DNA of 40,997 nucleotides, from the IMG/VR virus record IMGVR_UViG_2571042438_000006; one strand, written 5' to 3'. Shown here piece by piece: positions 3,579-21,563 of this stretch. Within the stretch, counting starts at the first letter, position 1. Every line of letters begins with the position of its first letter. The stretch is from a virus (taxonomy: Duplodnaviria; Heunggongvirae; Uroviricota; Caudoviricetes). A program made the position numbers and the translations under genes. The notes beneath the pieces are model-generated. The model did no database searches. It had not been told where the DNA came from and worked only from the letters and a program-made list of their open reading frames with translations.

Positions 3579-3676
3579 CTTTCATTAATCCCTGAACTGT
3601 TGGTTAATACGCTTGAGGGTGAATGCGAACAATAAAAAAGGAGCCTGTAGCTCCCTGATAATTTTGCTTTTCATGT

Positions 3677-3859
3677 TCATCGTTCCTTAAAGACGCCGTT
3701 TAACATGCCGATCGCCAGGCTTAAATGAGTTGGTGTGAATCCCATCAGCGTTACCGTTTCGCGGTGCTTCTTCAGTACGCTACGGCAAATGTCATCGACG
3801 TTTTTATCCGGAAACTGCTGTCTGGCTTTTTTTGATTTCAGAATTAGCCTGACGGGCAA
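3677..3859 (-). CDS. Small hypothetical protein (b-region)
   Basis: 60-aa ORF co-oriented with the leftward early operon. Confidence 0.35.
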   Translation of the reverse strand: MPVRLILKSKKARQQFPDKNVDDICRSVLKKHRETVTLMGFTPTHLSLAIGMLNGVFKER

Positions 3860-3969
3860 TGCTGCGAAGGGCGTTTTCTTGCTGAGGTGTCATTAAACAA
3901 GCCCCATGTCGGCAAGCATAAGCACACAGAATATGAAGCCCGCTGCCAGAAAAATGCATTCAGTGGTTG

Positions 3970-4161
3970 TCATACCTGGTCTCTCTCATCTGCTTCTGCT
4001 TTCGCCACCATCATTTCCAGCTTTTGTGAAAGGGATGTGGCTAACGTATGAAATTCTTCGTCTGTTTCTACTGGTATTGGCACAAACCTGACTCCAATTT
4101 GAGCAAGGCTATGTGCCATCTCAATACTCGTTCTTAACTCAACAGGAGATGCTTTGTGCAT
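3970..4161 (-). CDS. Small hypothetical protein (b-region)
   Basis: 63-aa ORF, co-oriented and tightly packed upstream of exo. Confidence 0.4.
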   Translation of the reverse strand: MHKASPVELRTSIEMAHSLAQIGVRFVPIPVETDEEFHTLATSLSQKLEMMVAKAEADERDQV

Positions 4162-4322
4162 ACCGCCTCCCGTTTATTATTTATCTTCTCAGCCAGCCGC
4201 TGTGCTTTCAGTGGATTTCTGATAACAGAAAGGCCGGGAAATACCCAGCCTCGCTTTGTAACGGAGTAGACGAAAGTGATCGCGCCTACCCGGATATTAT
4301 CGTGAGGATGCGTCATCGCCAT
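4134..4322 (-). CDS. Small hypothetical protein (b-region)
   Basis: 62-aa ORF; its start overlaps the exo stop by about 10 nt. Confidence 0.4.
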
Positions 4323-4993
4323 TGCTCCCCAAATACAAAACCAATTTCAGCCAGTGCCTCGTCCATTTTTTCGATGAACTCCGGCACCATCTCGTCAAAA
4401 CTCGCCATGTACTTTTCATCCCGCTCAACCACGACATAATGCAGTCCTTCACGCTTCATACGCGGGTCATAGTTGGCAAAGTACCAGGCATCTTTTCGTG
4501 TCACCCACATGCTGTACTGCACCTGGGCCATGTAAGCCGACTTTATGGCCTCGAAACCACCGAGCCGGAACTTCATGAAATCCCGGGAGGTAAACGGGCA
4601 TTTCAGCTCAAGGCCATTGCCGTCACTGCATAAACCATCGGGAGAGCAGGCGGTGCGCATACTTTCGTCGCGATAGATGATCGGGGATTCAGTAACATTC
4701 ACGCCGGAAGTGAATTCAAACAGAGTTCTGGCGTCGTTCTCGTACTGTTTTCCCCATGCCAGCGCCTTAGCATTAACTTCCGGAGCCACACCGGTGCAAA
4801 CCTCAGCCAGCAGGGTGTGGAAGTAGGACATTTTCATGTCAGGCCACTTCTTTCCTGAGCGGGGCTTGGCTATCACGTTGTGAACTTCTGAAGCGGTGAT
4901 GACGCCGAGCCGTAATTTGTGCCATGCATCATCCCCCTGTTCGACAGCTCTCACGTCGATCCCGGTACGCTGCAGGATAATGTCCGGTGTCAT
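4313..4993 (-). CDS. exo: Lambda exonuclease (Red alpha)
   Basis: 226 aa, [40 protein letters not shown]..., essentially the lambda Exo sequence as I recall it. Confidence 0.95.
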
Positions 4994-10302: not shown

Positions 10303-10601
10303 CGGGCAAAGAGGCAATTATTCATTACCTGGGGACTCATAAGAAATTCTGTGCGCAGGACGTTGCCGCGGTAACAGGCGCAACGGTAACCAGCATAAAT
10401 CAGGCTGCGGCTAAAATGGCACGGGCAGGTCTTCTGGCTATCGAAGGTAAGGTCTGGCGAACGGTGTATTACCGGTTTGCTACCAGAGAAGAACGGGAAG
10501 GAAAGGTGAGCACGAATCTGATTTTTAAGGAGTGTCGCCAGAGTGCCGCGATGAAACGGGTATTGAGGGTATATAAAAGAACATCAATGGGTACACAATG
10601 A
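10299..10601 (+). CDS. ren: Ren (protection from Rex exclusion)
   Basis: MTGKEAIIHYLGTH...VTGATVTSINQAAAKMARAG...GKVWRTVYYRFATREEREGK matches lambda Ren. Confidence 0.85.
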   Translation: MTGKEAIIHYLGTHKKFCAQDVAAVTGATVTSINQAAAKMARAGLLAIEGKVWRTVYYRFATREEREGKVSTNLIFKECRQSAAMKRVLRVYKRTSMGTQ

Positions 10602-10668
10602 TGAAACAGGTGAGTTGAGTTCAAACTGTAGTACAATTCTCTCCAGTTTGAACAGGAAAGAATATTCT

Positions 10669-11001
10669 ATGAACCCTTATATTTATCTTGGTGGTGCAAT
10701 ACTTGCAGAGGTCATTGGTACAACCTTAATGAAGTTTTCAGAAGGTTTTACACGGTTATGGCCATCTGTTGGTACAATTATTTGTTATTGTGCATCATTC
10801 TGGTTATTAGCTCAGACGCTGGCTTATATTCCTACAGGGATTGCTTATGCTATCTGGTCAGGAGTCGGTATTGTCCTGATTAGCTTACTGTCATGGGGAC
10901 TTTTCGGCCAACGGCTGGACCTGCCAGCCATTATAGGCATGATGTTGATTTGTGCCGGTGTGTTGGTTATTAATTTATTGTCACGAAGCACACCACATTA
11001 A
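10669..11001 (+). CDS. emrE: Small multidrug resistance efflux transporter EmrE
   Basis: 110 aa from MNPYIYLGGAILAEVIGTTLMKFSEGFTRLWPSVGTIICY; four transmembrane helices with the conserved Glu14. Confidence 0.9.
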   Translation: MNPYIYLGGAILAEVIGTTLMKFSEGFTRLWPSVGTIICYCASFWLLAQTLAYIPTGIAYAIWSGVGIVLISLLSWGLFGQRLDLPAIIGMMLICAGVLVINLLSRSTPH

Positions 11002-11030
11002 AAATAATTTGTTTCTAAACGACTAAAATA

Positions 11031-11075
11031 TGGAGGCTCTTATATTTATATGAGCCTCGTTTTATGCTTTTTGTT
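11031..11075 (+). terminator. Rho-independent terminator after emrE
   Basis: GGAGGCTC-TTATATTTATAT-GAGCCTC hairpin followed by a T-rich tract. Confidence 0.5.
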
Positions 11076-11257
11076 AATGTCTTTATTTTTTTATGTATTC
11101 TTTTGTGCTTTCAAGATTATGGCGTAAGAAAATTGCAATACGATTATTGTTGTATATTCAAGATAATGTGACCTTAATTGTCTTTTTAAATAAAAATTAA
11201 ACAAAAATTATATCCCACCACTAAGGTTTATAAAAGCATACGTTAGCAGGTGTCACC

Positions 11258-12784
11258 ATGAAAAAAGCCATAGCATATATGCGATTTTCATCACCAGGTC
11301 AGATGTCTGGCGACTCATTAAACCGACAGAGAAGACTTATTGCTGAATGGTTAAAGGTAAATAGTGATTATTATCTTGATACCATAACATATGAAGATTT
11401 AGGATTAAGTGCATTCAAAGGAAAGCATGCACAATCAGGAGCTTTTTCGGAATTTTTAGATGCTATAGAGCATGGTTATATATTGCCAGGAACTACATTG
11501 TTAGTTGAAAGTCTGGACAGACTTTCAAGAGAAAAAGTCGGTGAAGCGATTGAACGTCTGAAATTGATTTTGAATCACGGTATTGATGTTATAACTCTTT
11601 GCGACAATACAGTCTATAATATTGACTCTTTGAATGAGCCATATTCATTAATAAAAGCCATACTTATAGCACAAAGGGCAAATGAAGAAAGCGAGATAAA
11701 GTCAAGTCGGGTTAAATTATCATGGAAGAAAAAACGGCAGGATGCACTGGAATCAGGTACGATTATGACGGCGTCTTGTCCGAGATGGCTCTCCTTAGAT
11801 GACAAAAGAACGGCTTTTGTTCCAGACCCCGACAGGGTGAAAACTATTGAGCTAATTTTTAAACTCAGGATGGAAAGGCGCTCATTGAATGCAATAGCCA
11901 AGTATTTAAATGATCATGCTGTAAAGAATTTCTCAGGAAAAGAAAGTGCATGGGGACCTTCTGTAATTGAAAAATTATTAGCGAATAAAGCTCTGATAGG
12001 TATATGCGTACCTTCATATCGTGCAAGAGGTAAAGGAATAAGTGAAATCGCTGGCTATTATCCCAGAGTCATATCAGATGATTTGTTTTACGCTGTACAG
12101 GAAATTCGGTTGGCACCTTTTGGTATTAGCAATAGTAGCAAAAATCCTATGTTGATAAATCTACTTCGAACAGTTATGAAGTGCGAGGCTTGTGGTAATA
12201 CCATGATTGTTCATGCGGTATCTGGAAGTTTGCATGGCTATTATGTTTGTCCGATGAGAAGACTGCATCGATGTGACAGGCCATCAATAAAGAGAGATTT
12301 GGTTGATTATAATATCATTAATGAGTTGCTTTTTAATTGTAGTAAAATCCAACCAGTTGAAAACAAGAAAGATGCTAATGAAACTTTAGAGTTGAAAATT
12401 ATTGAGCTCCAGATGAAAATTAATAATTTAATTGCTGCATTATCTGTTGCGCCTGAAGTTACCGCTATAGCAGAAAAAATCAGAGTATTAGATAAGGAAT
12501 TACGAAGGGCTTCTGTATCATTAAAAACTTTGAAGAGTAAAGCGGTGAGTTCACTTGGTGATTTTCATGCTATTGACTTAACCAGTAAAAATGGGCGAGA
12601 GCTATGTCGTACACTTGCCTATAAAACATTCGAAAAAATCATAATCAATACAGATAATAAAACCTGTGATATCTATTTTATGAATGGCATTGTTTTTAAA
12701 CACTATCCTTTAATGAAAACAATATCCGCCCAGCAGGCGATAAGTACTCTCAAATATATGGTTGATGGTGAGGTTTATTTTTGA
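11258..12784 (+). CDS. ybcK: Large serine recombinase (resolvase/invertase catalytic domain, recombinase domain, zinc ribbon, coiled coil); YbcK-like
   Basis: 508 aa; N-terminal AIAYMRFSSPGQ...SLNRQ with the catalytic Ser motif; Cys-rich CEACGN...YYVCPMRRLHRCD zinc ribbon; AT-rich cargo. Confidence 0.85.
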   Translation: MKKAIAYMRFSSPGQMSGDSLNRQRRLIAEWLKVNSDYYLDTITYEDLGLSAFKGKHAQSGAFSEFLDAIEHGYILPGTTLLVESLDRLSREKVGEAIERLKLILNHGIDVITLCDNTVYNIDSLNEPYSLIKAILIAQRANEESEIKSSRVKLSWKKKRQDALESGTIMTASCPRWLSLDDKRTAFVPDPDRVKTIELIFKLRMERRSLNAIAKYLNDHAVKNFSGKESAWGPSVIEKLLANKALIGICVPSYRARGKGISEIAGYYPRVISDDLFYAVQEIRLAPFGISNSSKNPMLINLLRTVMKCEACGNTMIVHAVSGSLHGYYVCPMRRLHRCDRPSIKRDLVDYNIINELLFNCSKIQPVENKKDANETLELKIIELQMKINNLIAALSVAPEVTAIAEKIRVLDKELRRASVSLKTLKSKAVSSLGDFHAIDLTSKNGRELCRTLAYKTFEKIIINTDNKTCDIYFMNGIVFKHYPLMKTISAQQAISTLKYMVDGEVYF

Positions 12785-12895
12785 GTAATAATCACTTTTT
12801 CAACCGTGCTATAGTAAGAAAGTTAGGTAAGTACAATAAAATTATCTATCCTGAACGAAGCGTCCTGAGCTATGGTTTTACTATAGAGACTGCCA

Positions 12896-13219
12896 ATGGA
12901 TGCTGGCGTTCTCGTTCTAGCAGTTCAACAATACCCAATCACAAAACAATTCACTGATAACGAACTTTGCACACTCGCCTGGTTATGGCGAGCAGGGAAT
13001 GTGATGTTAATTACCTACCAGAACGTTACTCCTCTTCTTCAGGTTGCGGAGCATCGTGAAGCTGGTCGCTTCACTTCTATCGAGCAAGAATATCCCCAGA
13101 TACTCAATAAGGCACAGGCAATCCTTGCCAGAGAAACGGCACATGTAAAATTCCGGCCGTGGCAGGATGATAAGTGGAGTCGAGTTTTGCCGCATTTACG
13201 TTCGGATCGATTACAGTAG
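12896..13219 (+). CDS. Hypothetical protein (107 aa), no recognised domain
   Basis: ORF only; sits in the AT-rich cargo block downstream of the serine recombinase. Confidence 0.3.
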   Translation: MDAGVLVLAVQQYPITKQFTDNELCTLAWLWRAGNVMLITYQNVTPLLQVAEHREAGRFTSIEQEYPQILNKAQAILARETAHVKFRPWQDDKWSRVLPHLRSDRLQ

Positions 13220-13680
13220 ATTCCAATTAACAATGAGAAACACATAGCCACCCCGTGGTATTGAAACCATATAATGTTGGATTTGAAAACAGATCTTTTT
13301 CCATGTATTAATAACTACATCCCCGCGAGTGATTCAAAAAGGAGGGCCCAATTTTGTCCGAGTTTTTGTATTCCCCCGCATGCCGCTGCGGAGCACTACA
13401 TCTGAGTGTCTGACTAGGGGATAAAATTAGACTGGATAGTGAGAAGAAAGTGGCGTGCTAGGCTGTGCCGAGTGCTACCAGTACACCCTGGGGGTGTGCA
13501 GCTTTCGCCGAGACTGTAGTGGGTATCGGTTAATGCACGAAAAACCGAGAGGTCAGACAACCAATTTGCCGTAGGATTGTTTCCGGTGCGATACCGGTGT
13601 ACTAACTGAAAGCAATGCGAAAAAGCATAAACTCGGTCCTTCAGTCGCCCTACACACTATTTACTAAGAAGGGCTAAAGC

Positions 13681-14037
13681 ATGGATACAATTATCACATG
13701 GATGGGAGATCGTCTGTTGGGGTGGATAACAAACAAATCCGATCTGCGGCAGAGGGCAATCACTGGATTAACTCCTGCGATTTATTCAACAATTTTATAT
13801 ACTGAAAAATTAAAACGTGGTGAGCCTAATAACCCAAACGAAGAAGAAAAACTTTATAGACTTTGGTATGAAGCGTCTTCCCAAGTCGTAGACTTTGATC
13901 GAGAGCTGGCTAAAAGATGTTTAGATAAATCAGAATATTGGCTTCATTCTGAATTATATAGCCCTGAGAAAGTTGGAGAGCTAAACATTTCTTTGGTTGG
14001 TATGAAGGCAACGCTTGAAGGAATAAAGCACAATTAA
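13681..14037 (+). CDS. Hypothetical protein (118 aa), no recognised domain
   Basis: ORF preceded by AAGAAGGG about 10 nt upstream of the ATG; AT-rich codon usage. Confidence 0.35.
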   Translation: MDTIITWMGDRLLGWITNKSDLRQRAITGLTPAIYSTILYTEKLKRGEPNNPNEEEKLYRLWYEASSQVVDFDRELAKRCLDKSEYWLHSELYSPEKVGELNISLVGMKATLEGIKHN

Positions 14038-14224
14038 AACCTTTGATTTGCGATAATCAACTCGCCATAATCATGTCATCGGAGCCTGAACAACTCCGGT
14101 GACTTCTGCGCTAAACGGGGACGTTTATGCGCACACACAATCCAAACTCTCTTCTCCCTCCACAGATGCAGAAATGCACCTGCGATATATTGTATCCAGC
14201 GTTTGACCTCTGCGGAGGTGAAGC

Positions 14225-14680
14225 GTGAATCTCCCACAAGATGGCATCAAATTACATCGCGGTAACTTCACCGCTATCGGTCGGCAGATCCAGCCTTATC
14301 TGGAGGAGGGCAAATGCTTTCGCATGGTGCTTAAACCGTGGCGTGAGAAACGCAGTCTTTCCCAGAATGCACTCAGCCACATGTGGTACAGCGAAATCAG
14401 TGAATACCTCATCAGCAGGGGTAAAACGTTCGCTACTCCAGCTTGGGTAAAAGATGCTCTCAAACACACATATCTCGGTTATGAAACCAAAGACCTGGTT
14501 GATGTCGTAACCGGTGATATCACCACTATCCAGTCGTTACGCCATACCTCCGATCTTGATACCGGAGAGATGTATGTCTTCCTGTGTAAGGTTGAAGCCT
14601 GGGCGGTGAATATTGGCTGCCACCTGACTATTCCGCAGAGCTGCGAGTTCCAGCTGCTCCGCGACAAGCAGGAGGCGTAA
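14225..14680 (+). CDS. ybcN: YbcN-like nin-region protein (DUF1367)
   Basis: 151 aa, [55 protein letters not shown]..., as K-12 YbcN. Confidence 0.8.
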
Positions 14681-14850
14681 TGGCTACACCGCTTATTCGT
14701 GTCATGAACGGACACATCTACAGAGTACCAGATCGTCGTAAGCGTAAACCGGAGCTGAAGCCTTCCGAAATACCAACACTGCTCGGATATACCGCCAGCC
14801 TGGTTGATAAAAAATGGTTGCGACTGGCAGCAAGGAGGAATCATGGCTGA
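14680..14850 (+). CDS. ninE: NinE (56 aa; below the ORF-track size cut-off)
   Basis: My translation: [56 protein letters not shown]; ATG overlaps the ybcN stop (TAATG) and its end overlaps the ybcO start. Confidence 0.7.
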   Translation: MATPLIRVMNGHIYRVPDRRKRKPELKPSEIPTLLGYTASLVDKKWLRLAARRNHG

Positions 14851-15133
14851 TTTGAGAAAAGCAGCGCGTAGTCGGGAATGCCAGGTAAGAATCCCTGGCG
14901 TATGTAATGGCAACCCTGAAACGTCTGTACTGGCACATATCCGGCTGACTGGATTGTGCGGCACCGGTACCAAACCGCCAGACCTGATTGCCACCATTGC
15001 ATGTTCTGCCTGCCACGACGAAATCGACCGCCGCACACATTTTGTCGATGCTGCATATGCAAAAGAATGCGCGCTGGAAGGTATGGCGAGAACACAGGTT
15101 ATCTGGCTGAAAGAGGGGGTTATTAAGGCGTGA
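14843..15133 (+). CDS. ybcO: YbcO-like nin-region protein (DUF1364, putative nuclease)
   Basis: 96 aa from [34 protein letters not shown]; Cys-rich; AGGAGG ribosome-binding site. Confidence 0.8.
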
Positions 15134-15492
15134 ATACCTACAGCATCACATTACCCTGGCCTCCGAGCAATAATCGCTATTACCGCCATAATCGCGGGCG
15201 CACGCACGTCAGCGCAGAGGGGCAGGCATACCGCGATAACGTCGCCCGAATCATTAAAAACGCAATGCTGGATATCGGCCTGGCTATGCCTGTGAAAATC
15301 CGCATTGAGTGCCACATGCCGGATCGCCGTCGCCGTGACCTGGATAATCTGCAAAAAGCCGCTTTTGACGCACTCACTAAAGCAGGTTTCTGGCTGGATG
15401 ATGCTCAGGTCGTTGATTACCGCGTTGTGAAGATGCCTGTTACCAAAGGTGGGAGGCTGGAACTGACCATCACCGAAATGGGGAATGAATGA
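15130..15492 (+). CDS. rusA: RusA Holliday-junction resolvase
   Basis: 120 aa, [36 protein letters not shown]...[25 protein letters not shown] with the catalytic Asp residues. Confidence 0.9.
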
Positions 15493-15629
15493 TGTTTGAG
15501 TTTTATATGGCAGAACGTCTTCGCCACCGCTGGGGGCGTCTGCGCTTATATCGTTTCCCCGGTTCTGTTTTGACCGATTACCGAATACTGAAGAATTACG
15601 CCAAAACCCTGACAGGAGCAGGAGTATGA
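15489..15629 (+). CDS. ylcG: YlcG-like small protein (46 aa; below the ORF-track cut-off)
   Basis: My translation: [46 protein letters not shown]; start overlaps the rusA stop. Confidence 0.55.
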
Positions 15630-15714
15630 AGTCAGAGATAACAATCAACTAATACTGTTTCGTTGATTTTTGCTTGTAATTGGCGTTCTGGTCTGATTTT
15701 TGTGGAGTAAGTTG

Positions 15715-16092
15715 ATGCGTGATATTCAGATGGTTCTTGAGCGTTGGGGAGCGTGGGCGGCTAATAATCATGAAGATGTGACCTGGTCGTCCATTGCCGC
15801 CGGTTTTAAGGGATTAATTACTTCAAAAGTAAAATCTCGCCCACAATGTTGTGACGATGACGCGATGATCATTTGCGGGTGCATGGCCCGTCTGAAAAAG
15901 AACAACAGCGATTTGCATGATTTATTGGTGGACTATTATGTCGGCGGCATGACTTTTATGGCGCTTGCACGTAAGCATGGGCGATCTGATTGTTGGGTTG
16001 GCAGGATGCTTCAGAAAGCTGAGGGCGTAGTGGAGGGTATGCTGATGGTGTTGGATCTCCGATTGGAGATGGATGCTGATTGTTCGAAATAA
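15715..16092 (+). CDS. quuD: Late-gene antiterminator Q (phage 21/82-type, QuuD-like)
   Basis: [34 protein letters not shown]...[16 protein letters not shown] Cys-rich zinc-binding region; last gene of the nin operon. Confidence 0.85.
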
Positions 16093-16192
16093 TTAAAGGA
16101 AAAGTTGCTGTCTGATTGTCATTAGTCTAACATTTTAAATGTTGGAATCGCAACGTAGTTATTATCATATAACAGCTTGTTTCCTGATTTAG

Positions 16193-16219
16193 CCAGCCTC
16201 CCCAAAGGCTGGTTTTTTT
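16193..16219 (+). terminator. Rho-independent terminator about 100 nt downstream of Q (tR' analogue; the late promoter PR' is expected at about 16100-16190)
   Basis: CCAGCCT-CCCCAA-AGGCTGG hairpin followed by TTTTTTT. Confidence 0.6.
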
Positions 16220-16247
16220 CTAATAAGTATTATTTCGGGTAGGGATT

Positions 16248-16772
16248 TTATTGTTTAACCCATAATAATTCATTGACATTGAATCCCAACTTTTGAGCGG
16301 TTCGCACATAGTCTGCTTTTACTTTATCTGGAATAGTTGGGGTCCTTGCCAGAATCCATAGGTATTCTCTGTTCGGACCACTGACAAGAGCATACTTATA
16401 CTCATCATCCAGTTTGATTACATTATAGCCACCATAGAAGGGGCCAAAAAACGAAACCTTCAATGCTGCAGTTTTAGTATCTCCAGTAAAGTATGCTTTA
16501 CCTTCGCTCTCGCTCCATTTATTTTTCGTTGGATCGTATCCACGGTTAAGTACACGAATCCCTCCGTCGTTCCGTTTTCCATAAGTAGCGCTGACCTGTT
16601 CCAGACCACGTTCGAACCGGTTCTCGAGGCGAGCTATTTCATACCATTTTCCGAGGTAGCGGTTGGCGTCAAAATTTGTAATCGGCTGCACACCTTTAGG
16701 TGGTGTCGGGGCCTTACATGCTATAAGAGTGAAAGAGAGTGCAATGCCAGTCAACACAGGCCATAACTTCAT
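16248..16772 (-). CDS. blc: Bacterial lipocalin (Blc-like outer-membrane lipoprotein)
   Basis: 174 aa; signal peptide with lipobox LIAC; NFDANRYLGKWYEIARLENRFERG and SFFGPFYGGYNVI...YLWILARTP lipocalin motifs. Confidence 0.85.
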   Translation of the reverse strand: MKLWPVLTGIALSFTLIACKAPTPPKGVQPITNFDANRYLGKWYEIARLENRFERGLEQVSATYGKRNDGGIRVLNRGYDPTKNKWSESEGKAYFTGDTKTAALKVSFFGPFYGGYNVIKLDDEYKYALVSGPNREYLWILARTPTIPDKVKADYVRTAQKLGFNVNELLWVKQ

Positions 16773-16964
16773 AATAAATCCTGTACTTTTGATAGTTGAG
16801 AGTAAGTATGAAAGATAGATGATTACGACCGATCACTTAAAGAACTTTCATACTATATTAGGAATAGTCCATAACAGAAAAATTGTCAGTGATGACGCCA
16901 GAAAGGCAATTTATTCCGTGCACTACACAGTTTATGTGTTAATGAATTAGTCAAGGGGGAGAAT

Positions 16965-17924
16965 ATGATAAAAAAACCTGTGATTGGAATCAGCGGTTGT
17001 TTGGCCGGTTCTGCTGTTCGTTTTGATGGTGGTCACAAAAGAGCTGACTTTTTAATGGACAAATTAGTGGAATGGGTAACATTCAGACCAGTATGTCCGG
17101 AAATGGCTATAGGGCTGCCAGTTCCGCGTCCTGCTCTACGTCTTGTGCGCTCGACGCAAGGAAATATACGGATGTGTTTCAGCCACGACCAGAATGAGGA
17201 TGTGACAGAGAGAATGACAGAGTTTAGTCGTTCTTATATGGACAAATTAAAGGATGTATCGGGGTTTGTGGTTTGTGCTAAATCTCCCAGCTGTGGCATG
17301 GAGCGCGTGCGTGTCTATGATGAAAATGGTAATCGAGGTCGTAAAGATGGAGTGGGACTATTTACGAGCACTTTGATGGAAAAGTTTTCCTGGCTACCGG
17401 TTGAAGAGGATGGGCGATTACATGATCCAGTGCTTCGTGAGAATTTTGTTGAAAGAGTTTTTGCTTTGCATGAGCTCAATCACCTTTACAAGGAGAAATT
17501 ATCAAGAAGAGAGTTATTAGCTTTTCATAGTCGTTATAAGCTTCAGTTGTTGGCGCATAGTCAGGCAGGCTATAAAGATATGGGACCATTTGTGGCTGCA
17601 ATACACGAGTGGGCGGACCTTGAATCATACTTTGAGGTGTATCGTGATAAGCTGATGGCGATTCTCAGAAAACCTGCATCACGTAAAAATCACACGAATG
17701 TGCTGATGCATATACAGGGGTATTTTAGTAACTACTTAAGTACACGCCAGCGTAAAGAGTTGAGCGAGGTTATACTTAACTATCGTTCTGGCACATTACC
17801 TCTTCTTGCGCCGTTGACTCTGCTGAAGCATTATCTGGGTGAGTATCCTAATGATTACTTGCTTACACAGAATTACTTCGATCCCTATCCGGACGAACTG
17901 GCTCTAAGACTGATGGTAAATTAA
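16965..17924 (+). CDS. YbgA-type protein: DUF523 (TudS-like Cys-rich) domain fused to DUF1722
   Basis: 319 aa, MIKKPVIGISGCLAG...RPVCPEM...KSPSCGMERVRVYDENGNRGRKDGVGLF...WLPVEEDGRLHDPVLRENFVERVFAL; three conserved Cys. Confidence 0.75.
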   Translation: MIKKPVIGISGCLAGSAVRFDGGHKRADFLMDKLVEWVTFRPVCPEMAIGLPVPRPALRLVRSTQGNIRMCFSHDQNEDVTERMTEFSRSYMDKLKDVSGFVVCAKSPSCGMERVRVYDENGNRGRKDGVGLFTSTLMEKFSWLPVEEDGRLHDPVLRENFVERVFALHELNHLYKEKLSRRELLAFHSRYKLQLLAHSQAGYKDMGPFVAAIHEWADLESYFEVYRDKLMAILRKPASRKNHTNVLMHIQGYFSNYLSTRQRKELSEVILNYRSGTLPLLAPLTLLKHYLGEYPNDYLLTQNYFDPYPDELALRLMVN

Positions 17925-18266
17925 TTGTATGCGATATCATCCAAAAGGATGAGTTCCTGCATGCAGGATATTTACAATCGTAAAAACTACACTATGATAC
18001 CCAGAGTGTCAGTTTGTATAAAAACTCTGTTTACGCTGAAGAAACAATTGAGATGCAACTTAAAGTTAGTAAACATGCCAGTCAAAATATATAATATTAT
18101 GATTCCACGCAGCTATATATAATATAACAGATTGGTTTAATAATTTGTCTTTGTGAGTTAAATACATAATTTTATACTTGTGATGCAATGAAATTTTCCT
18201 TATTGTTGAACTGGCGAATATTGATTTTCCACCTATACTTACCTGGTGTAACCCCAATGATATCAG

Positions 18267-19007
18267 GTGGATAATATGCTATACATATGTTCTATCATTT
18301 TGGTGTTGAACTCGTTTGATGTCCGAATTGGTAAAGAAGATATTTTGTTTAAAAAAGGAAGTGCTGTTCTCATTGATTACAATTTAAAAGATTTTTTTTC
18401 ATCAAATATAGATCATGTAATGATCGTAGATGTTGAAGAAAAAACAGTTAATGATTTCTTTAAAAGCAACACACTCTCACCTTTTTCTGTAAGAAGGTTT
18501 TATCCGGCATACTTGATGGTGGAATGTGAAGATTTTTCATTGTTAAAGAACTTGATTGCATGCTTGAATTGTGATGGCAGAACTGTGGATTTTGTTAGAA
18601 ATCAAATATCACTTGCATGTCTTGCTATCTTATCTTCAGAGAAAATAGTGCAAAGTTTTTTATTTGGATGTCTTAATAGTTTAGGAAGTAAAGTTAAGGC
18701 TATTATTCACACGGATATATCTGCAGCATGGAGACTTTGTGATATATCTTCAAGACTGTATCTGAGTGAAAGTCTGTTAAAAAGAAAATTAAAGCACGAA
18801 GGCTTATCATTTAGTAAGTTAATTCTTGAAGAGCGAATGGTGATGGCGGAAAGGTTATTAAGCTACAATTTATATTCTGTTGGAAAAGTTGCTGAGATAT
18901 GCAGTTATGAAAACACGTCATATTTTGTAAGTGTTTTCAGAAGGTATTTTGGTGTTCCTCCCCATCAATATTCATCAAGATTTTTTTTAGAAAAAGACAT
19001 GATGTAA
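18267..19007 (+). CDS. AraC/XylS-family transcriptional regulator (AppY/YbcM-like)
   Basis: 246 aa; C-terminal double helix-turn-helix (LSESLLKRKLKHEGLSFSKL...YENTSYFVSVFRRYFGVPPHQY); AT-rich. The true start may be a few codons downstream. Confidence 0.8.
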   Translation: MDNMLYICSIILVLNSFDVRIGKEDILFKKGSAVLIDYNLKDFFSSNIDHVMIVDVEEKTVNDFFKSNTLSPFSVRRFYPAYLMVECEDFSLLKNLIACLNCDGRTVDFVRNQISLACLAILSSEKIVQSFLFGCLNSLGSKVKAIIHTDISAAWRLCDISSRLYLSESLLKRKLKHEGLSFSKLILEERMVMAERLLSYNLYSVGKVAEICSYENTSYFVSVFRRYFGVPPHQYSSRFFLEKDMM

Positions 19008-19194
19008 CGTGATGCGTTTTAATGATTTTGTAATTTTCGTATTTGATAATTGTATGATGCTTTCAGCTACGCCAGAATAATCGCGGCGTTTTTCTTTTTG
19101 AATAGATGTTCAAGCCTTACGCTAATGTAACTTCTATACCTTTCCTCTTCGTTCCGAACCGTGTACACCATCCGTTATTTGCGGAGGTGAGGCT

Positions 19195-19410
19195 ATGAAA
19201 TCCATGGATAAGTTAACAACGGGCATTGCCTACGGCACCTCCGCAGGCAGTGCTGGCTACTGGTTTTTACAGCTGCTCGATAAAGTCACGCCCTCACAGT
19301 GGGCAGCAATAGGTGTGCTGGGTAGCTTGGTATTTGGCCTGCTGACGTACCTGACAAACCTTTATTTCAAGATTAAAGAAGATAAGCGCAAGGCTGCGAG
19401 AGGTGAATAA
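19195..19410 (+). CDS. S: Class II holin/pinholin (phage 21 S-like) with dual-start motif MKSM
   Basis: 71 aa, [31 protein letters not shown]...; two transmembrane domains; GGAGG ribosome-binding site. Confidence 0.85.
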
Positions 19411-19907
19411 TGCCTCCATCATTACGAAAAGCCGTTGCTGCTGCTATTGGTGGCGGAGCAATTGCTATAGCATCAGTGTTAATCACTGGCCCAAGTGGTA
19501 ACGATGGTCTGGAAGGTGTCAGCTACATACCATACAAAGATATCGTTGGCGTATGGACTGTATGTCACGGGCATACAGGAAAAGACATCATTCCCGGTAA
19601 AACGTATACCGAAGCAGAATGCAAAGCCCTCCTGAATAAAGACCTTGCCACGGTAGCCAGACAAATTAACCCGTACATCAAAGTCGATATACCGGAAACA
19701 ACGCGCGGCGCTCTTTACTCGTTCGTCTATAACGTGGGCGCAGGCAATTTCAGAACATCTACTCTTCTTCGCAAAATAAACCAGGGCGATATCAAGGGCG
19801 CATGTGACCAGCTACGTCGCTGGGCATACGCTGGCGGTAAGCAATGGAAAGGCCTGATGACTCGTCGTGAGATTGAGCGTGAGGTCTGTTTGTGGGGGCA
19901 ACAATGA
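19410..19907 (+). CDS. R: SAR (signal-anchor-release) endolysin, lysozyme family (phage 21 R-like)
   Basis: 165 aa; N-terminal Gly/Ala-rich weakly hydrophobic SAR domain ([20 protein letters not shown]) followed by a lysozyme catalytic region. Confidence 0.85.
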
Positions 19908-20371
19908 GCAGGGTAACCGCGATTATCTCCGCTCTGGTTATCTGCATCATCGTCTGCCTGTCATGGGCTGTTAATCATTACCGTGATAATGCAATCGCCT
20001 ACAAAGAACAGCGTGATAACAAGGCCAGTGAACTGGAGAAGGCGAACGCCACCATTACTGACATGCAGCAGCGCCAGCGTGATGCTGATGCACTCGATGA
20101 TAAATACACGAAGGAGTTAGCTGATGCGAAAGCTGAAAATGATGCTCTTCGGCGCAAGCTTGATAATGGTGGTCGGGTGCTCGTCAAAGGAAAATGCCCT
20201 GTGCCATCCTCAGCCGAAACCTCCAGCGCCTCCGGCATGGGCAATGATGCCACCGTCGAACTCTCTCCAGTTGCTGGACGAAACGTTCTCGGTATCCGGG
20301 ACGGAATTATCCGCGACCAAACAGCACTGAGAACGCTTCAGGAATACATCAGGACGCAATGCCTTCGATGA
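19904..20371 (+). CDS. Rz: Rz i-spanin (inner-membrane spanin subunit)
   Basis: [23 protein letters not shown] transmembrane anchor followed by a coiled-coil periplasmic domain; start overlaps the R end. Confidence 0.8.
20124..20330 (+). CDS. Rz1: Rz1 o-spanin lipoprotein, embedded in the +1 frame inside Rz
   Basis: [21 protein letters not shown] (lipobox VVGC) followed by a Pro-rich segment [11 protein letters not shown]; wholly contained within Rz. Confidence 0.75.
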
Positions 20372-20862: not shown

Positions 20863-21273
20863 TTAGTGCGGAAATATTTGTGTAGTGTTCTGAATGTTCT
20901 CAGTAAAGAGTAATGAATTATCAAAGGTATAGTAATACCTTTTGTTTTCGTGGATATTTGTAATCCATCTGAAAACCCCTGCTGTAGCAAGATTTTTCCT
21001 GTATTCGTAAAATGATAACTCTCCTGATTTGAATCCTTTTAAGGTGGCTTCTATAAGGCATTTATTTTTTGAAAATCTTACATTTACAACCTTACCCTGT
21101 CCTTTTATTAAAACCGTATTATCGTTTTCAAGAACAAGATGAATATTCTCTGTAGCTAAATAGTAAATGTAATGTGAGACATTGTGACGTTTTAGTTCAG
21201 AATAAAACCAGTGATAGTTTAAATTATTTCGCACTTTATCGAATATTTGTTTAAAAATGGCAACCTGAGCCAT
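20863..21273 (-). CDS. ybcV: YbcV-like protein (DUF1398)
   Basis: 136 aa from [42 protein letters not shown]; AT-rich cargo between the lysis genes and cos. Confidence 0.65.
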
Positions 21274-21329
21274 TGTGGTACCTTCCATGTGATATGAGGG
21301 GCGTAGTCTGCACGATTATCTAAATTGCT

Positions 21330-21563
21330 TCAATCTGGTCTGATCTGTTTTCTGAGCAATTCAGTAATGTCACTCTTTTCTTTGTTTGCTTCAGGAGAAA
21401 CTCTTTTTTCTGAGCACAGTCTCCGGCGGCAGGCTTCAATGACCCAGGCTGAGAAATTCCCGGACCCTTTTTGATCAAGAGCGATGTTAATTTGTTCAAT
21501 CATTTGGTTAGGAAAGCGGATGTTGCGGATTGTTGTTCTGCGGGTTCTGTTCTTCGTTGACAT
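21330..21563 (-). CDS. ylcI: YlcI-like small protein (DUF3950); may start at the internal MIEQINIAL (21503)
   Basis: ...MIEQINIALDQKGSGNFSAWVIEACRRRLCSEKR... Confidence 0.5.
   Translation of the reverse strand: MSTKNRTRRTTIRNIRFPNQMIEQINIALDQKGSGNFSAWVIEACRRRLCSEKRVSPEANKEKSDITELLRKQIRPD

Follow-up and report, generated by a model that had tools for sequence, protein, structure and literature searches.

RudS is a fusion of a TudS domain with a DUF1722 domain that takes the 4-thiouridine (s4U) modification off transfer RNA (tRNA) (Jamontas et al. 2024, NAR, PMC11417400). All six RudS proteins that were overexpressed in Escherichia coli BL21(DE3), among them RudS_vir of Escherichia phage 1H12, cut tRNA s4U by 4.7- to 26-fold as measured by high-performance liquid chromatography with tandem mass spectrometry (HPLC-MS/MS), and 2-thiocytidine was unchanged; neither TudS alone nor E. 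coli YbgA, which is DUF1722 alone, gave a decrease in tRNA s4U on overexpression (PMC11417400). In RudS_KT the residues Cys17, Cys49, Cys114, Glu51, Ser111, Ser113 and Arg60 are essential, and overexpression of this protein lessened the growth delay induced by ultraviolet A (UVA) light (PMC11417400). Both that paper and a 2026 review state that E. coli is without RudS. Here we analyze a 40,997-nucleotide stretch of viral DNA (IMG/VR record IMGVR_UViG_2571042438_000006; hereafter, the window), in which rudS lies in a cassette with blc and the gene for an AraC-family regulator, between the antiterminator gene Q and the holin gene S. Prophage-borne rudS is present in about 18% of complete E. coli genomes, contrary to the species-wide statement of absence; this prevalence, the composite origin of the cassette, its occurrence in two prophage backbones and the PatE-like identity of its third gene are modest additions.

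A predicted tRNA 4-thiouridine desulfidase in the Q–S slot of an argU prophage

An intact and complete lambdoid prophage of the DLP12 family, located at argU, makes up the window. The tRNA-Arg(UCU) gene argU lies at 1580–1656, and strain FDAARGOS_497 has an identical locus whose annotation runs from integrase (intD) through tail protein J, which bears out a preliminary description of the window, made from its letters alone, that had placed the block in an argU lambdoid prophage rather than in ordinary chromosome. The Q–S segment is a three-gene cargo (moron) block of this E. coli lambda-like prophage, with the late-gene switch on one side and the lysis genes on the other. All the features that the preliminary description had assigned to the block between Q/tR' and the lysis cassette were recovered where it had put them, by open reading frames (ORFs), Pfam and NCBIfam. 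The segment is made up as follows:

15700–16092, + strand: Q antiterminator of the QuuD/phage-82 type (Pfam PF06530 Phage_antitermQ, E=1e-50; RefSeq start at 15715)
16075–19183, no strand: exchangeable cassette, full extent relative to K-12 DLP12 (blastn borders)
16093–16190, + strand: presumed late promoter (pR') region, by its position from Q to the terminator
16191–16224, + strand: intrinsic terminator at the tR' position, a hairpin with a free energy of −14.9 kcal/mol (z=−4.7) followed by U7
16248–16772, − strand: blc, outer-membrane lipocalin lipoprotein of 174 amino acids (aa), antisense to late transcription (Pfam and NCBIfam)
16773–16964, no strand: divergent blc-rudS intergenic region, 34% guanine plus cytosine (GC)
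16965–17924, + strand: rudS, predicted TudS(DUF523)-DUF1722 fusion of 319 aa (PF04463 and PF08349)
17925–17966, + strand: stable hairpin without a U-run directly 3' of the rudS stop codon (−19.5 kcal/mol, z=−4.6)
18276–19007, + strand: PatE/YdeO/AppY-type AraC/XylS regulator of 243 aa (HTH_18 and HTH_AraC; alternative GTG start at 18267)
19008–19194, + strand: spacer upstream of holin S, with a weak hairpin and T-run at about 19069–19100
19195–20371, + strand: lysis cassette S-R-Rz, the right border (P21 holin E=2e-35 and Phage_lysozyme E=9e-46, Pfam)

Judged by its sequence, the 319-aa protein is RudS, a predicted [4Fe-4S] tRNA 4-thiouridine desulfidase. Pfam finds the DUF523 and DUF1722 domains that the preliminary description had named: PF04463, ‘2-thiouracil desulfurase’ (DUF523), at residues 7–149 (E=3.1e-40), with the whole 141-position profile matched, and PF08349 (DUF1722) at residues 192–309 (E=1.9e-40). 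The direct match to the TudS structure 6Z92 is weak. The closest characterized relative is RudS_vir (H3V29_gp66), likewise of 319 aa, to which the window protein is 93% identical, with 21 residues differing; identity to the protein of phage IdasGreatGrand reaches 99.7%. The three conserved cysteines, also anticipated, are Cys12, Cys44 and Cys110, the same positions as in RudS_vir and in RudS_ST, the 319-aa product of Salmonella ORF319 in Salmonella pathogenicity island 2 (SPI-2) (PMC11417400, Table 1). By motif comparison with RudS_KT, the remaining catalytic residues are assigned to Glu46 (in C-P-E), Arg55, and Ser107 and Ser109 (in S-P-S-C), and the tRNA-contact pair Ser243-Arg244 of RudS_KT corresponds to Ser239-Arg240. 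The C-terminal domain is 49% identical to K-12 YbgA (b0707), which has no catalytic TudS domain and no effect on s4U, so that the prophage RudS would supply the activity that YbgA is missing.

The likeness to 1H12 extends from the catalytic Glu, Ser, Ser and Arg residues to the cassette as a whole. Gene order in 1H12 (Q, antisense blc, rudS, a hypothetical AraC-like gene, holin) is that of the window, with protein identities of 97% for Blc, 93% for RudS and 82% for the regulator. In the 2024 work the gene was synthetic and its overexpression plasmid-borne, and the activity was measured on RudS_vir, 21 residues from the window allele. The link to TudS/RudS-type 4-thiouridine desulfidases that the preliminary description had drawn is right and has experimental backing in a 93%-identical protein that lowers tRNA s4U (PMC11417400). 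For the enzyme, its remark that no such phage function is established has been overtaken, RudS_vir having been cloned and assayed in 2024 (PMC11417400). Because the enzyme of an allelic copy had already been assayed, the cassette is, as regards gene function, for the most part known.

The antisense gene encodes a Blc-like lipocalin, as had been proposed. Pfam Lipocalin_2 matches with E=7e-44, and NCBIfam NF007786, ‘outer membrane lipoprotein Blc’, gives 316 bits, above its cut-off of 267, covering residues 1–174 of a 176-position profile. The leader MKLWPVLTGIALSFTLIAC19, read by eye, ends in the lipobox L-I-A-C19. The protein is 60% identical to K-12 Blc (b4149) and 97% identical to 1H12 gp65. 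Blc is the one cassette product for which a record of its presence in a lysogen was found: the exact window protein, annotated in the identical FDAARGOS_497 locus as WP_000780581.1, was quantified by proteomics in the sequence type 648 (ST648) strain CCUG 70745, where it rose 2- to 3-fold at 15 min of meropenem. A 2020 paper names blc as a common lambda moron.

The borders of the cassette are set by comparison with DLP12 of K-12, which occupies the same argU site. Homology stops at 16074 and returns at 19184, 11 bp 5' of S (blastn); Q, labelled ‘antiterminator Q family protein’ in FDAARGOS_497, shares 89% DNA identity with K-12 quuD up to that left border. Because homology in the Q region ends at 16074, the exchangeable unit takes in the presumed pR'/tR' region. 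On the right lie a P21-type holin (start 19195), lysozyme (19410) and Rz (19892), annotated essD, rrrD and lysis protein in FDAARGOS_497. The comparison of Q–S content with other argU prophages that the preliminary description called for shows that DLP12 carries the antisense porin gene nmpC in this slot, and an OmpD/NmpC porin fills it in viable related phages such as the PhiR34_1 type. The porin cargo resembles the cassette in following Q/pR'/tR' and in beginning with an antisense gene for an outer-membrane protein, as blc does here; it differs in that two sense-oriented genes for cytoplasmic proteins follow blc, an order comparable to that of stxAB in Shiga toxin (Stx) phages. Stx phages carry stx in the same Q–S slot, and Q-dependent stx expression is established in them. 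GC content is 44% in blc, 43% in rudS, 31% in the regulator gene and 32–40% in the intergenic stretches, against 50% for the whole window, so that the earlier characterization of all three genes as AT-rich holds for the regulator gene and the spacers and less well for blc and rudS. PHROGs classes all three protein families as ‘unknown function’. No PADLOC model matched any of the three cassette proteins, and for that reason an anti-phage defence reading was dropped.

Distribution and origin of the cassette

Queried with its interior (16230–19020), the cassette is found in 1,152 of 5,426 complete E. coli genomes, 997 of them (~18% of the total) at a coverage of at least 80%; with the Q and S flanks included, the count is 979 of 5,426. 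Counting each record by its best place with the interior query, the genomes with a match fall into four bands of DNA identity:

At least 99%: 602 genomes; the setting seen in the window, a DLP12-type prophage at argU
95–99%: 144 genomes
90–95% (listed rows near 94.7%): 299 genomes; the Q–S slot of a Qin-type prophage, with hokD, ydfU, essQ, rrrQ and cspI
80–90% (listed rows near 89.8%): 107 genomes; the identity level of 1H12 phages

As far as these sequence comparisons go, the cassette has moved between two prophage backbones, the Q–S slots of DLP12-type and Qin-type elements. In the phage collection, full-length RudS occurs in 12 records only, all E. coli lambdoid phages and IdasGreatGrand among them. 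Three allele classes, 5–10% apart in DNA, retain intact ORFs, and between the window and 1H12 alleles the ratio of nonsynonymous to synonymous substitution rates (dN/dS) comes to 0.06 in blc, 0.11 in rudS and 0.26 in the regulator gene; all three genes are under purifying selection.

The statement that E. coli lacks RudS holds for K-12 and for B/BL21, the latter because an IS3 truncation has left it without an intact gene. With about 18% of genomes carrying an intact rudS, what was learned in K-12 about s4U, the growth delay under near-UV and the stability of tRNA may not transfer to these carriers, ST648 clinical isolates among them.

Several observations concern individual copies. BL21(DE3), the host of the published RudS assays, has a rudS remnant and no intact copy. 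E. coli C43(DE3), a strain of the BL21 lineage (NZ_CP011938.1, 5484–8073), carries a Qin-like prophage with Q, blc and the first 49 codons of rudS, cut beside IS3. The insertion sequences (IS) IS1, IS2, IS3 or IS5 lie within or beside the cassette in several E. coli genomes; in strain 165, IS1 stands in place of the regulator gene, and iss is found 3' of Rz. Two short contigs of the ‘Candidatus Nanosynbacter’ metagenome-assembled genome JARKOR01 (Saccharibacteria) are ~99% identical to the cassette, one with Q-blc-rudS and the other with rudS-regulator-S-R; these matches are almost certainly binning contamination.

A scan of one genome per species places chromosomal RudS orthologues, 67–77% identical to the window protein, in Citrobacter, Enterobacter, Kluyvera, Leclercia, Klebsiella, Pectobacterium and Dickeya. 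Of the Enterobacter and Leclercia loci retrieved, most have the gene for a Blc homologue (~80% identity) upstream of rudS, in divergent orientation and separated from it by a single gene; in C. sedlakii blc directly adjoins rudS, again divergently, as in the phage. The intervening gene in Enterobacter (E. hormaechei, 3660–4385 of the retrieved locus) encodes a MerR/MlrA-type regulator; Salmonella ORF319 (RudS_ST) is likewise controlled by a MerR-family regulator (PMC11417400). Given this shared divergent arrangement, the blc-rudS pair appears to have been inherited together from an enterobacterial chromosome, minus the MerR regulator. Homologues of the AraC-like regulator were absent from the chromosomal blc/rudS loci retrieved, and this, together with the 31% GC of its gene, makes the regulator look like a separate addition. 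We conclude from these sequence relationships that the cassette is probably composite, a blc-rudS pair to which an AT-rich regulator gene, as it looks, was separately added.

The best DNA identity of any chromosomal blc-rudS locus to the cassette is ~70%, and the blc-rudS intergenic region, kept among the three phage alleles, is unalignable with the chromosomal Citrobacter intergenic regions; on both grounds no recent donor of blc-rudS was identified among the chromosomal loci. In Citrobacter braakii ATCC 51113, rudS is present twice, on separate contigs, and no blc adjoins either copy. A 2026 review notes a fall in tRNA s4U under near-UV in Enterobacter cloacae, which fits a light- or stress-responsive chromosomal rudS locus; the phage copy has lost the MerR/MlrA-type regulator of the Enterobacter locus.

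The regulator, late transcription and competing explanations

The third protein is an AraC-family regulator with a C-terminal double helix-turn-helix (Pfam HTH_18, E=3.5e-13; HTH_AraC, E=2.6e-10). Among NCBIfam models YdeO fits it best, with 123 bits and thus under the cut-off of 348, and because the equivalog cut-off is not reached, we regard it as a paralogue and not as YdeO itself. The closest relative found is ECs_0287, the sole AraC-type regulator of Sakai prophage Sp1, which is 53% identical over 235 aa and matches in full length, including the N-terminal domain; identity to AppY and to YdeO is 31% over ~233–237 aa. The likening to AppY in the preliminary description was therefore right about the family and missed the nearer relative. 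PatE, PsrA/PsrB, AppY and YdeO share with the cassette regulator a size of ~245 aa, an N-terminal ‘CSVIL...’ domain, the C-terminal HTH_18 and AT-richness; all are prophage-borne except YdeO, which is chromosomal. Location differs within the group: the cassette regulator sits in the Q–S slot, whereas PatE-like genes of other lambdoid phages (52% identity; mEp332, ev099 and PhiR70_1) and appY of DLP12 lie elsewhere in their genomes. According to a 2024 review, PatE (z0321) is encoded on OI-8/CP-933H of enterohaemorrhagic E. coli (EHEC) O157:H7. PatE, PsrB and AppY each activate the GadE/HdeAB (AR2) acid-resistance genes, from which the same functional class, and thus activation of the GadE/HdeAB circuit, is predicted for the cassette regulator; it would be a further member of a set of prophage-borne regulators that plug into acid resistance. 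Overexpression of ‘PatE (CIW80_12240)’ in E. coli Nissle 1917 raised acid tolerance; that gene could not be located, since RefSeq tags RS12240–12250 are bcs genes, and the lead was dropped.

A scan of 15900–19400 finds a single intrinsic terminator, at 16191–16224 on the + strand, where the preliminary description had seen one at 16193–16219; the reverse strand folds there too (−13.3), yet without a U-run. A consensus promoter scan yields nothing that reaches threshold between Q and the terminator, so that neither the −35 and −10 boxes of pR' nor a Q-binding element is assignable; 16093–16190 holds only weak sigma-70 matches, for example TTGCTG-17-TAACAT at 16105–16133, read by eye and below the scan threshold. 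This stretch is conserved with 1H12 and shares just short islands with DLP12, such as ATATAACAG. A consensus-level match, TTGAGA-16-GATGAT, lies at 16796–16823 in the blc-rudS intergenic region, and the 340-bp AT-rich spacer 5' of the regulator gene holds promoter-like hexamers, including a 10/12 match at 17971–17998. No promoter is predicted in 19008–19194. Late transcripts must cross the 3.1-kb cassette, and with no promoter predicted just upstream of S, the most economical model, by analogy with stx in Stx phages, is Q-antiterminated read-through, which would run antisense over blc and sense through rudS and the regulator gene. The hairpin and T-run at ~19069–19100 after the regulator gene (−7.3 kcal/mol, z=−0.5) is no more stable than shuffled sequence and was dropped as a terminator. 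The stable hairpin at 17925–17966 may be a 3'-end stabilizer, or a weak terminator or Q-sensitive pause. An Rfam search of 15500–19500 returned just sub-threshold chance matches over the terminator.

Taken together, we favor, with a probability of roughly 0.7, a composite cassette that combines a lysogen-made Blc, an s4U-erasing RudS, an acid-resistance regulator and late read-through. Under this explanation Blc would be an outer-membrane lipoprotein that the lysogen produces from a promoter belonging to blc itself. The TudS domain of RudS would restore uridine from s4U at tRNA position 8 (and 9) as the DUF1722 domain holds the tRNA, giving E. coli an s4U ‘eraser’ that K-12 is without; near-UV would then be expected to cross-link tRNA less and to delay growth less. 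The regulator would switch on the GadE/HdeAB circuit. Late transcription would reach S, R, Rz and the structural genes by way of the cassette; rudS and the regulator gene would thus also be strongly co-expressed after Q antitermination, and blc opposed by antisense transcription.

Several points weigh against this explanation. Promoter-like matches across the cassette are not above chance (12 observed against 10.6 expected in shuffled sequence), pR' could not be pinpointed, and expression data turned up for neither rudS nor the regulator gene. Typical of the RudS context, though not defining for it, is a light-responsive operon, a MerR/LitR regulator or a photolyase; the phage cassette has no MerR or photolyase gene, and the near-UV rationale of the chromosomal loci may not apply to a cassette that is without the MerR/MlrA-type regulator. 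That ECs_0287 is PatE is itself inferred, from the equivalence of OI-8/CP-933H with Sp1 plus annotation, and 53% identity to PatE is no guarantee of the same regulon. RudS_vir, finally, was present at good protein levels, yet it desulfidated tRNA less than the other RudS proteins, and it gave the shortest lag on 4-thiouracil (PMC11417400), which together suggest that tRNA may not be its sole or main substrate.

This last point is the starting place for the view that phage RudS mainly desulfurizes free 4-thiouracil or 4-thio-uridine monophosphate (4-thio-UMP), in salvage or detoxification, with the tRNA effect a side activity of overexpression. The short lag was that of a uracil auxotroph, the small s4U drop came despite high protein, and the TudS domain of the window protein is complete. 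No RudS, however, supported growth as TudS did, and all of them lowered tRNA s4U where TudS alone did not (PMC11417400); the DUF1722 tRNA-binding domain is moreover under purifying selection and keeps Ser239-Arg240, which correspond to anticodon-contact residues. We consider a mainly salvage role quite improbable. Still harder to credit is that the block is passive, decaying cargo without current function, an explanation that is disfavored and to which we attach hardly any weight. It would account for the IS1, IS2, IS3 and IS5 insertions and for the E. coli B derivatives that retain only blc and the first 49 rudS codons; it fits poorly with 997 genomes at a coverage of at least 80%, three allele classes with intact ORFs and dN/dS of 0.06–0.26, viable isolated phages that carry the block, and a Blc protein that is detected.

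The question of timing is closer. Both rudS and the regulator gene could be purely lytic-phase genes, silent in the lysogen and transcribed, like stx, only by Q read-through in the service of phage production. Both are sense-oriented and lie 3' of the sole strong terminator, neither has a statistically supported promoter of its own in the scan, and a regulator gene of 31% GC is the type of DNA that would usually be silenced by H-NS. Their relatives PatE, PsrB and AppY, on the other hand, act in non-induced cells, and the neighboring blc is expressed in a lysogen. The 340-bp spacer with its promoter-like hexamers (among them the 10/12 match) offers a place for transcription independent of Q, and the cassette persists, apparently intact by annotation, in the Qin-type backbone, which is defective in K-12. 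A purely lytic role is thus a possibility to be kept in mind, though an unlikely one.

Returning to the composite cassette as we prefer to explain it, a further and more speculative step would make RudS a late, Q-dependent ‘epitranscriptome eraser’. Besides inducing SOS, UV forms cross-links between s4U8 and C13 of tRNA, which would stall translation; removal of s4U, by the induced phage or in the lysogen beforehand, would uncouple near-UV sensing from growth arrest. Translation might then be kept running under UV, raising burst size or the fitness of the lysogen in light, and the linked PatE-like regulator might adapt the same lysogen to gastric acid. We regard this extension as doubtful; if it were true, a prophage would set the tRNA s4U physiology of some 1 in 5 E. 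coli strains apart from that of K-12. With a candidate eraser of a tRNA modification in the slot familiar from Stx phages, and with 1H12 and IdasGreatGrand both inducible and culturable, the cassette offers a test case for whether a temperate phage gains from editing host tRNA.

Other cargo in the prophage

Two antisense small genes between Rz and terminase (20863–21563, − strand), one encoding a DUF1398 (YbcV-like) protein and the other a member of the YlcI/YnfO family with DUF3950, look like another cargo slot. The genes bor/iss, which are there in DLP12, 1H12 and strain 165, were not seen in the ORF list of the window. In the early-right region (~10500–13000, 31–41% GC), the multidrug efflux gene emrE and the recombinase gene ybcK are present, as in DLP12, and form an AT-rich cargo island within the nin region (13070–15185 of the FDAARGOS_497 locus).

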